From assembly GCA_029856525.1 (NCBI GenBank), contig JAHQXC010000004.1, positions 1 through 32,000 of the forward strand: DNA of 32,000 nt, read 5' to 3'. Positions within the stretch are counted from its first letter, which is position 1. Each line of letters opens with the position of its first letter. The stretch comes from Candidatus Odinarchaeia archaeon. Lineage in GTDB: Archaea; Asgardarchaeota; Odinarchaeia; Odinarchaeales; Odinarchaeaceae. Shown here in pieces: positions 6,177 to 10,025 of the stretch. The notes beneath the pieces were generated by a model. It was not told the origin of the DNA. It worked only from the letters and a program-made list of their open reading frames with translations, and ran no database searches. A program made the translations under genes and the position numbers.

Positions 6177-6800
6177 ATGGAGATCAAAGGATATATATTG
6201 ATAAAAGGGAATGTATACCCGGCCTCTGAAGTGTTAAAGGCGATTGCTAAAAATCCTCATATAAGGTTATCTTTAACTGATAAAGGAGCTCTACTGATAG
6301 GGGACTCCAAGATCGATAAATTAAACGAGCCTCTACCGAACATAATCAAAAACATTCTCTGCTTTAAAGCGTTAGCATACTGCTGTCCACTAGACAGGCC
6401 TTGCTCCAACCGAGATTTAGCATTAGAATTATTGGGGATAAGTAAAACAGTGTATAAGAATCTTAAAGAAGAATTCGAGGGGAAACTGTTAAACTATATT
6501 AGTGAATCAGGAATTCAAGGTAAATCTATACCAGGTAAAGAAATATTTTACAGTGAGCAACCTGACCGTGATATTTTAGAAGAATGGGATTTCTCATCTC
6601 TATCGAAACCTGAGAATCCTTATAAAAATGTAGAGGAGAGTAAACATGGAGAGACTGACGCGTTAAACTTCTTTACAATTTTAAGCGGTGAAACAGAATC
6701 TGAAAGACGGAAAGAAATTTATTGTAAAAGATGCGGGCGAAGCGTCGAAGCTTCAGCCAGATACTGTCCTAATTGTGGTAGTTTAATCGAAAAAGTTTAA
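6177..6800 (+). CDS. Hypothetical protein with a methanogenesis-marker-9-like Cys motif and a C-terminal zinc ribbon
   Basis: CFKALAYCCPLDRPCSNRDLALELLGISKTVYKNLKEEF (residues 62-100) and C-terminal CKRC...CPNC. Confidence 0.65.
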   Translation: MEIKGYILIKGNVYPASEVLKAIAKNPHIRLSLTDKGALLIGDSKIDKLNEPLPNIIKNILCFKALAYCCPLDRPCSNRDLALELLGISKTVYKNLKEEFEGKLLNYISESGIQGKSIPGKEIFYSEQPDRDILEEWDFSSLSKPENPYKNVEESKHGETDALNFFTILSGETESERRKEIYCKRCGRSVEASARYCPNCGSLIEKV

Positions 6801-6814
6801 AATAATTACAGAAA

Positions 6815-6951
6815 TTAGTTTTATAAATTTCGCTGCTGGAAGAGCAATGGTTTTAAGTGGTTGATGCGAACCAGCCTAAAATCTCACAGTGTACTTGTTA
6901 ACAGCACGCTGCGCGAGGGGAGAACCCCGTCTTTAGATGTGGGTAGTTCAC
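6815..6951 (+). mobile_element. Non-autonomous IS200/IS605-like element or TnpB omega-RNA-like locus, copy 1
   Basis: First 91 nt are 90/91 identical to 9758-9848. Ends GAACCCCGTCTTTAGATGTGGGTAGTTCAC, a hairpin plus AGTTCAC typical of IS605-group right ends. Confidence 0.7.
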
Positions 6952-6953
6952 TT

Positions 6954-7886
6954 TCAAGTTATTAAAGGTTTAATTCTTCTCCCAACATTAAACATTCTAA
7001 ACCATTCACTGTCATTTAAAAATAATCCAGCGTAGGCTCCAGCATTACATCCTATACCACACCTTTCACATATAGGTTTAGCTCCATCACTATCTGTATT
7101 AGAAATCACGCATGATTGTTTTCTTCTACCTTTATTATCCAAATTTATAAAAAACCATTTCGGACAGTTTAAACTCCACCCTCCATCTCTAAATAAATTT
7201 AACTGCATTGAGGTGTTAGCGATAAAATCAGGGAGTTTCTCTTTTATTCTTATTATGTTATCTATAGTAGCATTCCGCTCTTTCCCGTAGGGTAACCACA
7301 ATTCGTCATCATAGGAAAACGGTGTGTGAAACTGAAATGTAATCGCTTGAGCTATAGGATACCACTCGCTAATAACTTTCGGAATTACTTTATAGTTTAA
7401 TCTGTTTATCGTCATATTAATTACACATTTTATATCTGGATGGTCAATTATATTCTGTTTTATTTTTTCGTATATTTTCGCGCCTCTAATCATATTATGT
7501 ATCGACTCTGTTCCATCTATCGAGGTGAAATAACCCACACCGAAATTAATTAAAGGGATTGTCCCATTTGTTACTATGGAGACATTCCTCCACTTCATCT
7601 CATCTAAAATAGCTTCAATAACATCAACTCTAAGAAGCGGTTCACCGCCAGTTAAACTAATAGCGCATACTCCTTTCTCTATAATTTCTTTCCTTACTAT
7701 ACTTCTCCATTCATCGGCGCTTAACTCCCTGCTTGAATCATTATTTCGCCACCAGTAGCAGTGAATACAATTTAAATTACAGGCAGAGGTAATATCTATA
7801 GAACCGAATATCGGAATTTTTTTACCAAACAACTTTATTTGAATTATCTTCGAAGCGATTTCAGCGATGGTAATTATTTTTTTCAA
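6954..7886 (-). CDS. Radical SAM protein with C-terminal Cys cluster (SPASM/twitch-like)
   Basis: CNLNCIHC (CxxxCxxC), GGEP, TNG, SIDG motifs. C-terminal CV...CERCGIGC. TTG start. Confidence 0.88.
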   Translation of the reverse strand: MKKIITIAEIASKIIQIKLFGKKIPIFGSIDITSACNLNCIHCYWWRNNDSSRELSADEWRSIVRKEIIEKGVCAISLTGGEPLLRVDVIEAILDEMKWRNVSIVTNGTIPLINFGVGYFTSIDGTESIHNMIRGAKIYEKIKQNIIDHPDIKCVINMTINRLNYKVIPKVISEWYPIAQAITFQFHTPFSYDDELWLPYGKERNATIDNIIRIKEKLPDFIANTSMQLNLFRDGGWSLNCPKWFFINLDNKGRRKQSCVISNTDSDGAKPICERCGIGCNAGAYAGLFLNDSEWFRMFNVGRRIKPLIT

Positions 7887-8226
7887 TTAAAAGCCTTCCT
7901 TAAATTATATGGATATGAAATTAATTTTATATTTTTTTTAAAAAATTTTTAGAATATAAATTACTCTAAAAAATAAATTAACCTATATCCAAATCTATGT
8001 ACTTTAACTAACACCAGCTTTTAAAGTTGTTTAAATTTTATTTTAACCCTGCTCGCTGGAAGCCATCTCCAAATAGATGAGGGCTCCCTGTTCCTATTTT
8101 GCTATGACTTATGACAAGGACACAGTTTATATTTACAGGTAATGTTTAGTTCATGCTACTAACCGGTCGGCGGTAAGGCAAGATGCGCCTTTATGTAATT
8201 TCACAGTATAAATCTTCTAGATAACC

Positions 8227-9222
8227 TTATCTGCCTAAATGAAGTTCTCTAAGCTGATTGTATCCTGAAAGATAACAGTTATATGTGTATATTTCTTCAG
8301 CGGAAATCTTATCAGCTATTGATTTAATTATGTTCAATTCATCCTCGCCTGTTATATTCCAATAGAGGAGAGCTGGTTTAACATCTCTGTGTTTAAATGA
8401 TTCACTCTTAGATATCGATGACGTCAATCTATTATACTCTGTAGTGTTAACTTCAGGAAGTATAGGAGTCCACGGGTGAATGTTAAACACTATCTTAGTA
8501 GCGCGGCTTATTGACTCAACATTTTGCCCGTACTCTAATTCTAAGTTCTCTGTATAGTTTACAGCTGGTTCAAGATAAATTTCAGAGTAAACTTCAAGCT
8601 TCTCGTTAACTTTTCTTAAACGCTCTACAAGTGTTGTTATCATACTTGATAGTTTATCCGCCCTCCACATTAACCATTTAGACTGCAAGTCACGGTCTGC
8701 TTGTATTCTATTAAAGTCGAATGAGGCGGGTATACCCGCTATCTGACTGAACTCTGCTTTACAATTATCACAGAAACAGTAATTTCTATTTGTAAAAGTG
8801 TTTCCTGCAAGTATAACACCTTTAACAGGGTATTGGGCAACTTCTTCTAAGATTTTGGCAAGATAGTTGACAGTCATCTCAGAAGGGCATATATGGGTTG
8901 CACTAATCTGACCGCCAGATTTAACACTAGAGTATTTTGGATCCTCAGCCATATAATTATCTAAAAGCGTGTTGACAACAGCATAGACGTCGAAAATATC
9001 AGATGAAATTTTAATAAATTCATTTAGAAAGTTTCCGTGAACAGGATCCTTTGGGGCTGTTGAACTATCATAGAATACGCGGCCTGATGGAGGTTTAACA
9101 ACTAACCCTATTTTTGAGAGATTCCCCCCGTATTCAGCTATAAACTGAGATGGCTTCATATTAATAGCAGTCGGATCTAGTATCAGATTCAGATTATTAA
9201 CTAAAAGCTCTCTTAAATCCAT
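8227..9222 (-). CDS. Glycoside-hydrolase-like TIM-barrel protein (GHL10/DUF4015-like), probably catalytically divergent
   Basis: ICP...YL..ILEEV..YPV.GV.L, YCFCDNCKAEF, W.MWRADKL, GQN motifs follow the order seen in GHL10-type barrels. Confidence 0.55.
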   Translation of the reverse strand: MDLRELLVNNLNLILDPTAINMKPSQFIAEYGGNLSKIGLVVKPPSGRVFYDSSTAPKDPVHGNFLNEFIKISSDIFDVYAVVNTLLDNYMAEDPKYSSVKSGGQISATHICPSEMTVNYLAKILEEVAQYPVKGVILAGNTFTNRNYCFCDNCKAEFSQIAGIPASFDFNRIQADRDLQSKWLMWRADKLSSMITTLVERLRKVNEKLEVYSEIYLEPAVNYTENLELEYGQNVESISRATKIVFNIHPWTPILPEVNTTEYNRLTSSISKSESFKHRDVKPALLYWNITGEDELNIIKSIADKISAEEIYTYNCYLSGYNQLRELHLGR

Positions 9223-9513
9223 GATACCACCCTAAAAAACATATTTTTCTAGTATTGAATATTTCAACAGATATTTATAAACTACTCTAAGATCTTAACT
9301 TCACCGGTATGGACTTTCAATTTAATATGAAGATTTGAAAACTAAAACACCTTATATTCCACGGCTCACTAGACGTGTCCTAGCTGACGGTACACTCGCA
9401 GACACTGAAGCCTCAGCTTGAGCGTGGGAATTGAGCTTGATCGGGTAAGTGTCTGCGAAAACTGTAGTATTTTAACTCTCTAAAAACGAAACTTTAAATT
9501 TTAAATAAAAATT

Positions 9514-9657
9514 TTATCGGCACATTATTTTTTTCACTATTGGCGGTCTAACCTTATATAATACACGGTAACCGCAATATGGACATTTAACACCGGACAC
9601 CGTTTTAAGACTCTCTATTGTAATCTCTTTCTTGCAATTCCCGCAGATATAACTCAT
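9514..9657 (-). CDS. rpo12: DNA-directed RNA polymerase subunit Rpo12 (RpoP) (not in ORF track)
   Basis: Manual translation: MSYICGNCKKEITIESLKTVSGVKCPYCGYRVLYKVRPPIVKKIMCR*. Y-x-C-x-x-C...CPYCGYRVLYKVRP is the RpoP signature. Confidence 0.95.
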   Translation of the reverse strand: MSYICGNCKKEITIESLKTVSGVKCPYCGYRVLYKVRPPIVKKIMCR

Positions 9658-9757
9658 CTTAAACCACTTCCCTGATCAATGAGGATTCCTTTAATATAAA
9701 AATTACGTTTATATTTAAAGTTAACTTGAATTATAGAATAAGCCGTCTAGATCATCC

Positions 9758-9892
9758 TTAGTTTTATAAATTTCGCTGCTAGAAGAGCAATGGTTTTAAG
9801 TGGTTGATGCGAACCAGCCTAAAATCTCACAGTGTACTTGTTAACAGCCCGCTGTGCGGGGGAAGCCACCGTCTTTATACTGTAGGAGTCTA
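9758..9892 (+). mobile_element. Non-autonomous IS200/IS605-like element or omega-RNA-like locus, copy 2 (right end more decayed)
   Basis: Direct-orientation copy of 6815-6951. 3' part is GGAAGCCACCGTCTTTATACTGTAGGAGTC. Confidence 0.65.
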
Positions 9893-10025
9893 ATTTAAGA
9901 ATAATAAAGTATAAATATTAAGTAACATCTTTTTATTAGTCAGAGGCTCAGTTGTTAAGCAAAGTTTTATATTTATAATATTTCTAAATTCATTTAAAAA
10001 AATTGAAATTATGAGGAAAATTTGA

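Follow-up and report, generated by a model that had tools for sequence, protein, structure and literature searches.

The two repeats and their surroundings

The window, the whole 32,000-nt stretch that was analysed, is part of contig C37 of the 1.32-Mb MAG of an uncultured sediment archaeon (127 contigs, 93% complete, GC 38%), and it carries two gene-less repeats in direct orientation. The stop codon of a radical SAM gene lies 3 nt past the right end of element 1 according to the ORF list, and element 2 has a minus-strand rpoP-like gene of 47 aa on one side and plus-strand SUI1 on the other. The guide which copy 1 would give had earlier been described as antisense to the radical SAM gene; the relation holds, but it is merely the element's landing place. 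Neither tnpA nor tnpB was found on contig C37, in agreement with what had been stated for the window, and searches of this contig with the PF07282 profile and with TnpB sequences (tblastn) gave no signal. A composite transposon consisting of the two direct copies around 2.8 kb was rejected, the gene at 8227-9222 being syntenic in congeners; what is new relative to these genomes is the left-hand radical SAM gene alone. The features of the two elements were delineated as follows.

6815..6905, + strand: near-identical tract, matching 9758-9848 and taking in the five flank bases TTAGT ahead of TTTAT
6819..6827, + strand: TTTTATAAA, archaeal TATA-like box, composed of the target TTTAT and the first left-end bases AAA; assigned from sequence alone
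6820..6824, + strand: TTTAT target and presumed TAM of element 1; host DNA outside the element, where homology to G002 ends
6825..6951, + strand: element 1, a PATE, from the family alignment, the census and the clean insertion relative to G002 and G003; no ORF
6825..6858, + strand: left-end remnant, equal to AAATTTCACCGCTAGAAGA plus the TTTTAA-loop hairpin of longer copies; arms pair poorly
6859..6876, + strand: stem P1 (GGTTG/CAGCC) with loop GATGCGAAC; doubles as the probable deletion junction
6886..6905, + strand: best-conserved family motif, ACAGTGTACTTGTTAACAGC, standing where intact relatives have a CTCC-GAAA-GGAG inner hairpin
6926..6943, + strand: right-end subterminal hairpin, weakened to three G-C and two G-T pairs (CCCGT/GTGGG)
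6944..6951, + strand: right end TAGTTCAC, boundary of element 1; 10/10 tnpB-linked tails in relatives end AGTTCAC
9763..9767, + strand: TTTAT serving as target of element 2; the equivalent spot in congeners reads CTTTTATA
9768..9893, + strand: element 2, with the same left-end/core fusion as element 1 and its 3' third from another family lineage; ends GGAGTCTAA

In a global alignment of both copies, positions 6815-6905 and 9758-9848 were identical at 90 of 91 sites, the one exception being G/A at 6838, whereas the last 47 columns contained 33 identities (~70%), a contrast between the 5' and 3' parts with a Fisher p of 7e-7. In the family alignment, the cores of the two copies were 100% identical in the 5' half and 58% identical in the 3' half. 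The 5' near-identity and diverged 3' part described in the earlier note were therefore reproduced, and the hairpins TGCT/AGCA, GGTT/AACC and CACAGTG/CGCTG[C/T]G, together with the hairpin plus GGGTAGTTCAC at the end of copy 1, were all located. Its placement of the copies was retained with adjusted boundaries: TTTTATAAA, given as their common start, is present in both (at 6819 and 9762), but the near-identical block opens 4 nt earlier with TTAG, the true element starts are 6825 and 9768 (AAATTTC...), after the target-owned TTTAT, and copy 2 extends to 9893. The elements measure 127 nt (copy 1) and 126 nt (copy 2), and neither contains an ORF. Element 2 has lost its right-end hairpin together with the terminal TTCAC; since its diverged end (GGAGTCTAA) resembles that of family member C125, however, copy 2 is not missing its end.

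The repeat family and its tnpB relatives

The ~95-nt core was identified in 10 copies on 9 contigs of this MAG using nhmmer (E 1e-9 to 1e-25), with 64-90% identity in its 5' half, and the window copies are the two shortest members. The target position is occupied by (T)TTTAT in 7/9 family copies, the exceptions being C24 (ACTAT) and C82 (GTTAA). The longer copies possess a 5' stem-loop module (ATATAG/CTATAT), missing from the window copies, as well as left-end and right-end hairpins of 7 bp and 4-6 bp, respectively. The left-end hairpin is poor in the window type, down to ~4 bp in copy 1, as judged from comparison of the left-end remnant with the left ends of C14, C111, C121, C125 and the tnpA+tnpB element on C44. 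P1 is maintained in the family and in relatives with altered pairs (GGGCTG/CAGCC, GGGCGT/ACGCC), and the right-end hairpin reads CCCGT/ACGGG in copy C121.

Copy C121 is preceded by a 112-codon open frame, which ends a few nt upstream of the core; its product shows the RuvC-III region (..NRDLTGSVNIG..) and, with a PF07282 score of 33.9 bits that exceeds the cut-off, a Cas12f1-like/TnpB Zn ribbon. At 49-55% identity, the 63-aa remnant matches tnpB genes of G004, G006, G007 and G018 that are intact and reach 418 codons, and the 3' tails of these genes give a full-length match to the family HMM and all end AGTTCAC. The set of tails comprised 10 tnpB copies in relatives, several full-length and several truncated. 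The right ends were accordingly confirmed to be of IS200/IS605 type, as proposed in the earlier note, by homology to the region 3' of tnpB both at the C121 remnant and in relatives. No tnpB of the cognate lineage was detected in the assembly (93% complete) beyond the 112-codon remnant. As the assembly contains no intact parent of the exact lineage, we infer the parent from the remnant and from relatives at ~50% protein identity.

The intact elements of G004, G006, G007 and G018 share with the family a homologous TnpB C-terminus (..CxxC..YNRDLNGAINIGN..), a homologous P1 stem with a GTGAAC loop, a CCTCCC/GGGAGG stem, the right-end hairpin, the AGTTCAC end and a left end of the form ..TTTCA..C(T/A)AGAAGA followed by a hairpin. 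Unlike the window elements, they encode a TnpB of ~390-420 aa, have an additional inner GNRA hairpin and, in G004 and G006, a P1-loop insertion, and fold significantly better than shuffled sequence. In their left end the window elements are similar to the elements of C44 and of G006/G018; the C44 left end has a TTTTAA-loop hairpin followed by GGATGAATT, and its element includes the one apparently intact tnpA (HUH motif and catalytic-Tyr region; PF01797, 1e-39). A blastn search with a full-length family copy against 12 relatives returned zero matches in the three congeners. A pattern combining the P1-loop with the 15-nt motif, applied to the species genomes of GTDB and to JGI metagenomes, yielded chance matches only and no close family relatives; in an Archaeoglobaceae MAG, for example, the match falls within a gene for a membrane protein, and the family HMM recognises the motif alone.

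Insertion sites and origin of the two copies

Comparison of copy 1 (TTTAT, element, TTTCAAG) with the empty sites of two congeners, G002 and G003 ((GAT)TTAT/TTTAAG and CTTAAT/TTTCAA, the slash marking the insertion point), revealed a scarless insertion without target duplication, although the similarity of the right flank at these sites is short and AT-rich. TTTAT-like motifs had earlier been named as target/TAM sequences, which this comparison supports for copy 1. Copy 2 is absent at the orthologous site in G001, G002 and G003; the site is not cleanly empty in relatives, with ~25 and ~60 extra nt on either side in G000.

Given the 10-copy family, the tnpB remnant, the tails of the relatives, the clean insertion of copy 1 and the absences of copy 2, the repeats are very probably of PATE type, derived by internal deletion from a tnpB-only (IS1341-type) element of the IS200/IS605 group, left without genes and now decaying, and the MITE/PATE-type passenger is favoured of the two alternatives raised in the earlier note. 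Their non-coding size, IS605/IS1341-type ends, lack of target duplication and dispersed multi-copy family are those of PATEs. In the proposed mechanism, a repeat-mediated deletion at a GGT(T/G)GATG microhomology would have joined ~34 nt of left end to a ~95-nt parental stretch just 3' of tnpB that encodes the scaffold of the omega-RNA and the right end; comparison within the family places the putative recombination junction between left-end ..GGTGGATGAA.. and core ..GGTTGATGTGAA.. sequences. Mobilisation would have occurred in trans by a Y1 TnpA, for which the C44 tnpA, with its very similar left-end hairpin, is an apparently intact candidate, and the window copies would now be decaying passengers. 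The sharp break between 5' and 3' identity and the five common flank bases point to gene conversion instead of fresh transposition: the 91-nt near-identity may represent a local conversion tract, exchanged between two older insertions separated by 2.9 kb, and not recent copying of a whole element, with strong selection on the 5' part as a less likely reading of the same identity pattern. Neighbouring PATE copies could in this way be homogenised over ~95 nt while their other ends are still diverged, which can mimic recent activity.

PATEs (palindrome-associated transposable elements) were described in Haloquadratum walsbyi and other haloarchaea by Dyall-Smith et al. (2011, PMC3119063), according to whom they arise when repeats mediate deletion of the core of an IS605-type element. 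Like the haloarchaeal PATEs, the window elements are archaeal, too short to code, devoid of inverted terminal repeats and target duplications, inserted 3' of a 4-6-nt targeting sequence, and bounded by ends homologous to the IS605/IS1341 type; the haloarchaeal HqIRS71 type similarly retains part of the tnpB C-terminal region, and the families are heterogeneous and decaying. Unlike these, the window elements are unrelated in sequence, target TTTAT, have their junction at a left-end/core microhomology instead of duplicated palindromes, have a degenerate left-end palindrome, and reside in a small-genome sediment archaeon of another phylum-level lineage. Gene-less IS200/IS605 elements of Geobacillus stearothermophilus, where PATEs often encode omega-RNAs (Meers et al., 2023, PMC10055086), likewise consist of a left and a right end retaining the omega-RNA region, and their use in trans by the TnpB of other copies was proposed there. 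However, cognate TnpB and TnpA are present and omega-RNAs are expressed in Geobacillus, whereas the window copies, in an archaeal host with a TATA-type promoter, are known here from their sequence, lack an assembled cognate tnpB and have a truncated, eroded scaffold. The finding is real yet ordinary, PATEs encoding omega-RNAs having already been described (PMC3119063, PMC10055086). Its value is mainly one of housekeeping: it accounts for a striking repeat, provides exact boundaries and a TTTAT target for annotation of the MAG, and resolves the orphan omega-RNA-like loci across the genome into at least two PATE families.

Guide-RNA, regulatory and artefact readings

The TATA-like box noted earlier is present as sequence. 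It is made up of the TTTAT target/TAM and the opening bases of the left end, a combination that reads as a TATA box in this archaeal family. By the textbook archaeal spacing from box to start, TTTTATAAA would put a start near 6849-6852, ~8-10 nt ahead of the core, and a transcript may begin ~25 nt past the TTTAT+AAA box and run into the flank; that such a transcript is a working guide RNA today is unlikely. The correspondence to omega-RNAs, which originate from the tnpB 3' end and right end and take their guide from the flank, would be one of homology and position only.

Single-RNA folds of the window copies were no better than those of shuffled sequences (z = -0.74 and -0.12), compared with z = -2.7 for an intact relative tail. 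The tails of the relatives have a conserved structure with four compensatory pairs, and their homologue of the right-end hairpin shows compensatory changes. By contrast, the family consensus fold reaches only -4.3 kcal/mol with many broken pairs, and pairing across the family is in decay. The P1-loop GTGAAC and the right-end GTTCAC are complementary and invariant in 10/10 relatives; variants in the family break this potential pseudoknot without compensation, and covariation supports it neither way.

These results bear on the possibility that the window copies are working stand-alone omega-RNA genes, each transcribed from its TATA-like box as a ~100-nt scaffold plus flank guide and used in trans by a TnpB (from C93, C44 or an unassembled locus), which would either re-cut the empty donor site (TTTAT plus flank), thereby retaining the mini-element, or act on another target. 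We regard this as improbable, despite a box suitably spaced ~25 nt upstream of the core, the superior conservation of P1 and the 20-nt motif in the family, the almost identical 5' 91 nt, and the trans use proposed for PATEs in PMC10055086. Two apparently intact tnpB genes of other lineages, on C93 and C44, and one tnpA are available in the genome, and the C93 tnpB tail and the window copies have in common the P1-loop GCGAAC, a CAGC arm and an AGCTCAC end. However, the cognate lineage is represented by the remnant, to which the C44 TnpB is 46% identical over 50 aa and the C93 TnpB has no tblastn match, and the C93 and C44 3' tails are otherwise dissimilar to the window copies. A complete conserved omega-RNA scaffold is not present, the 5' stem-loop module and inner GNRA hairpin both missing, the folds are no better than those of shuffles, and family pairs are broken without compensation. 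Loss of the right-end hairpin and TTCAC from copy 2 means that its scaffold/guide junction is altered, and no TTTAT-flanked match to either 16-nt guide was found elsewhere in the genome with ≤2 mismatches. The self-transcribed trans-guide loci for a TnpB/TldR-like protein suggested in the earlier note consequently lack support, given the absence of a cognate tnpB from the assembly, the truncated scaffold, the poor fold, the altered right end of copy 2 and the lack of a TAM-flanked target in the genome. TldR is a nuclease-dead TnpB repressor whose guide adjoins the tldR gene and targets a promoter. The window copies would resemble such systems in that a TnpB-type guide RNA serves something besides transposon homing, but they have no target match, and no adjacent or nuclease-dead TnpB homologue is found on C37.

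A variant that we consider very improbable holds that the elements are minimised, self-promoted omega-RNA cassettes, in which TTTAT and the first left-end bases would rebuild an archaeal TATA box at each insertion with a start just ahead of P1, the trimmed scaffold would be accepted by a non-cognate TnpB (of C93 type or from an unassembled copy), and the 5' identity would derive from selection. If true, archaeal tnpB elements would generally rebuild a promoter from TAM plus left end, and the ~100-nt RNA would be a guide scaffold of naturally minimal size.

Domestication of the elements as promoter or regulatory modules, whose TATA-like box would drive or modulate the neighbours, is also very improbable; copy 1 would produce antisense RNA over the radical SAM 3' end and copy 2 sense read-through toward SUI1. 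The orientation and distances are compatible, copy 2 lying within the divergent rpoP/SUI1 promoter region with SUI1 130 nt downstream, but a conserved promoter-like block belonging to SUI1 itself (AAGCAAAGTTTTATATTT) is retained in 4/4 genomes and lies downstream of element 2, a T5 run separates copy 2 from SUI1, and congeners manage without either element.

The chance that the duplicate is an assembly artefact, or another class of small RNA (C/D box, H/ACA, tRNA-like), is close to nil: the MAG is in 127 contigs and TGATG-like and ACA-like strings are present, but homology to tnpB tails is clear, Rfam gave zero matches for the whole window at gathering thresholds and noise only for 6700-7050 at E ≤10 (TtnuCD3 at 16 bits; Ysr35), ARAGORN found no tRNA, and the copies diverge in their 3' thirds. 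The repeat is not a chance occurrence, its core being present in 10 copies in the genome, nor is it an assembly artefact: an independent set of contigs, derived from the probable source run, spans 4/4 flank-element junctions, with the common 67-nt piece appearing there as a separate, deeper unitig.

The repeat pair and its family

Both repeats described in the earlier note are real and sit where it had placed them, and the hairpins it named are present, as is the copy 1 end GGGTAGTTCAC. Global alignment of 6815-6905 with 9758-9848 gave 90/91 identities, the sole difference being G/A at 6838, and 33 identities in the remaining 47 columns between copy 1 (element at 6825-6951) and copy 2 (Fisher p = 7e-7 for the 5'/3' contrast). 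The archaeal MAG assembly studied, G000 (1.32 Mb, 127 contigs, 38% GC, 93% complete), in which the window is contig C37, probably originates from a sediment metagenome. Independent contigs, taken from the run that is the probable source, contain the left-flank/element and element/right-flank spans of both copies, with the common 67 nt forming a separate unitig, and an assembly artefact was therefore ruled out as the cause of the duplicate. Searches using Rfam and ARAGORN gave no match.

The core, the 3' ~95 nt of the elements (6857-6951 in copy 1), was identified with nhmmer in 10 genome copies, including eight besides the window pair (E 1e-9 to 1e-25). The family copies, named here after their contigs, were oriented and then aligned together with their upstream DNA, revealing a shared plan, in order:

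(T)TTTAT
AAATTTCACCGCTAGAAGA, after (T)TTTAT
hairpin with TTTTAA loop, then GGATGAATTC
~50 nt encoding ..G(S/A)VNIG.. in one frame
core
boundary at ..GGTAGTTCAC

In the C121 copy an open frame of 112 codons persists; it encodes a TnpB Zn ribbon (PF07282, above cut-off) and the NRDLTGSVNIG RuvC-III region, and its stop codon is a few nt upstream of the core. Because this tnpB remnant stops just before it, the core is the stretch immediately 3' of tnpB, which is the position of TnpB omega-RNA scaffolds and of IS200/IS605 right ends. No family member was found in the congeners G001-G003 using blastn or the TnpB remnant as query. Two copies (C24:13449-13610 and C82:20216-20380) have the left-end segment inverted relative to the core, with AAATTTC.. 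on one side and ..GAAATTTAT on the other, which suggests that an inversion spanned the left-end palindrome or that insertions occurred head to head.

Insertion sites and neighbouring genes

The features neighbouring copy 1 and surrounding copy 2 are:

6954-7886, minus strand: radical SAM gene (PF04055)
8227-9222, minus strand: gene for a 331-aa protein, syntenic in congeners (Pfam GHL13 sub-threshold, 22.9 bits only)
9514-9657, minus strand: 47-aa CxxC..CxxC ORF (MSYICGNCKK...)
9768-9893: copy 2, between the 47-aa rpoP-like gene and SUI1

Homology between G000 and G002 spans the Zn-ribbon gene and stops at the TTTAT at 6820-6824. When 6825-6951 was removed, the joint of TTTAT with TTTCAAGTTATT aligned with GATTTAT followed by TTTAAGTAAATC in G002 and CTTAAT followed by TTTCAACATTG in G003, although on the right flank the aligned stretch is short and AT-rich and hence only suggestive. 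From these empty-site alignments, copy 1 was inserted scarlessly 3' of TTTAT, with no duplication of the target. This pattern is the IS200/IS605 signature. Copy 2 is absent from the orthologous spacer in G001, G002 and G003, where CTTTTATA stands instead; this is not a clean empty site, as G000 has ~25 and ~60 extra nt flanking copy 2 relative to the congeners.

The earlier context implied two radical SAM genes; the one at 6954-7886 is the only one. It is without synteny in the congeners, its place being taken in G002 by an opposite-strand gene resembling beta-carbonic anhydrase and in G001 by ~3.8 kb of other DNA, and its best DNA matches are 77-78% in G005 and G006 (another family in the same order), with congener paralogues at 70-71%. 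The gene appears to occupy a variable or horizontally acquired slot beside copy 1. The 47-aa ORF, missed with a 50-aa ORF cut-off, shows 77-83% DNA identity in the three congeners and resembles RNA polymerase subunit P (Rpo12).

Intact relatives and the window-type deletion

The 63-aa TnpB remnant matches intact tnpB in G004 and G006 (same order) and G007 and G018 (same phylum) at 49-55% identity, with open frames reaching 418 codons. In 10/10 of the relatives' tnpB copies inspected, several full-length and several truncated, the family HMM matches full-length directly downstream of the Zn-ribbon region, and AGTTCAC closes the tail. These tails share a fold comprising P1 (the first stem of the core) with a GTGAAC loop, CCTCCC/GGGAGG, an inner CTCC-GAAA-GGAG hairpin and the right-end hairpin (23 pairs, compensatory changes in 4). 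The P1-loop GTGAAC exactly complements the right-end GTTCAC in 10/10 tnpB-linked tails (alignments A4/A5; L060-L063, L074-L080), and this invariant pair is a candidate pseudoknot or DNA-level contact. In copy 1 (6864-6872 vs 6946-6951) the loop reads GCGAAC, with one mismatch; copy 2 has lost the pairing.

The family left end resembles that of the C44 element, the only tnpA+tnpB element in G000 (ACGG-TTTTAA-CCGT, then GGATGAATT), the tnpA of which looks intact. In IS608, the 4 nt before the hairpin foot and the cleavage site correspond as TTAC/AAAG on the left and TCAA/GAAT on the right. The family ends read TTAT/AAGA on the left and TCAC/GAAG on the right, the fourth position co-varying, and presumably follow the same pattern.

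Copies 1 and 2 are the shortest family members. Their left end (to ..TTTTAAGTGG) is fused directly to the core at GGTTGATG, and in longer copies the left-end ..GGTGGATGAA.. resembles the core ..GGTTGATGTGAA.. at the fusion point. This is repeat-mediated core deletion, which often generates archaeal PATEs (PMC3119063). It took the tnpB remnant and a 5' stem-loop (ATATAG/CTATAT) kept by longer copies; all G000 family copies lack the inner GNRA hairpin of the intact relatives.

In the family alignment, the cores of copies 1 and 2 have 100% identity over the 5' half and 58% over the 3' half, the latter no closer than random family pairs; in the 3' third, copy 2 resembles C125/C14 and copy 1 resembles C33/C121. 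The identical tract takes in 5 flank bases (TTAGT) before TTTAT that are not common to other copies. The simplest reading is that a ~95-nt gene-conversion or recombination tract formed between two older insertions 2.9 kb apart.

Eroding PATEs and the guide-RNA question

In Haloquadratum, where PATEs were defined, they are gene-less derivatives of IS605/IS1341 that carry near-terminal palindromes but neither ITRs nor a target duplication (PMC3119063). The window elements fit this definition, apart from their eroded hairpins, and depart from several criteria of a functional omega-RNA. They are eroding PATEs, a known kind of element, rather than a new system of stand-alone guides. The transposon-end reading of the earlier note was correct.

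The window copies are very unlikely still to supply a trimmed, self-promoted RNA for use in trans. The TTTTATAAA box, formed by the target TTTAT and the first left-end bases, is TATA-like and lies at a fitting distance, ~25 nt ahead of the core, making a transcript of scaffold and flank from the window copies plausible. However, the assembly has no tnpB of the window-element lineage, those of C93 and C44 belonging to other lineages with different tails, and the window copies lack two scaffold modules. Their folds are not superior to those of shuffled sequence (z = -0.74 and -0.12, against -2.5 for a longer family copy and -2.7 for one example of the intact relatives' tails), and the family consensus fold (-4.3 kcal/mol) has broken pairs, few of them compensated. 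Copy 2 is without the right-end hairpin and TTCAC end, and no TTTAT-flanked match (<=2 mismatches) to either 16-nt flank 'guide' exists elsewhere in the genome. The proposed stand-alone guide system is thus not borne out by fold, scaffold, cognate tnpB or target evidence. The copy 1 'guide' is indeed antisense to the radical SAM gene, but this follows solely from the position of the insertion, 3 nt away from the stop codon of that gene.

The TATA-like reading of TTTAT + AAAT occurs at 6819-6827 and 9762-9770 and at the C14, C111 and C125 left ends; as it reads as an archaeal TATA box, the element promoter would be rebuilt at each insertion. Intact relatives have CAT followed by AAATATTTTC at this place.

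A second G000 family derives from the C93 tnpB and includes five short copies; the peptides they encode match the C93 TnpB C-terminus at 90-100% identity:

C93:26009-27289: tnpB, ending exactly at the contig end with ..GTAGCTCAC
C125:32-230, C71:10614-10760, C29:3851-3970, C77:29838-29927, C78:10460-10531: short fragments

What the fragments keep of C93 TnpB is its final 24-49 aa, and in one of them the first 20 aa as well; this mini-element family is younger.
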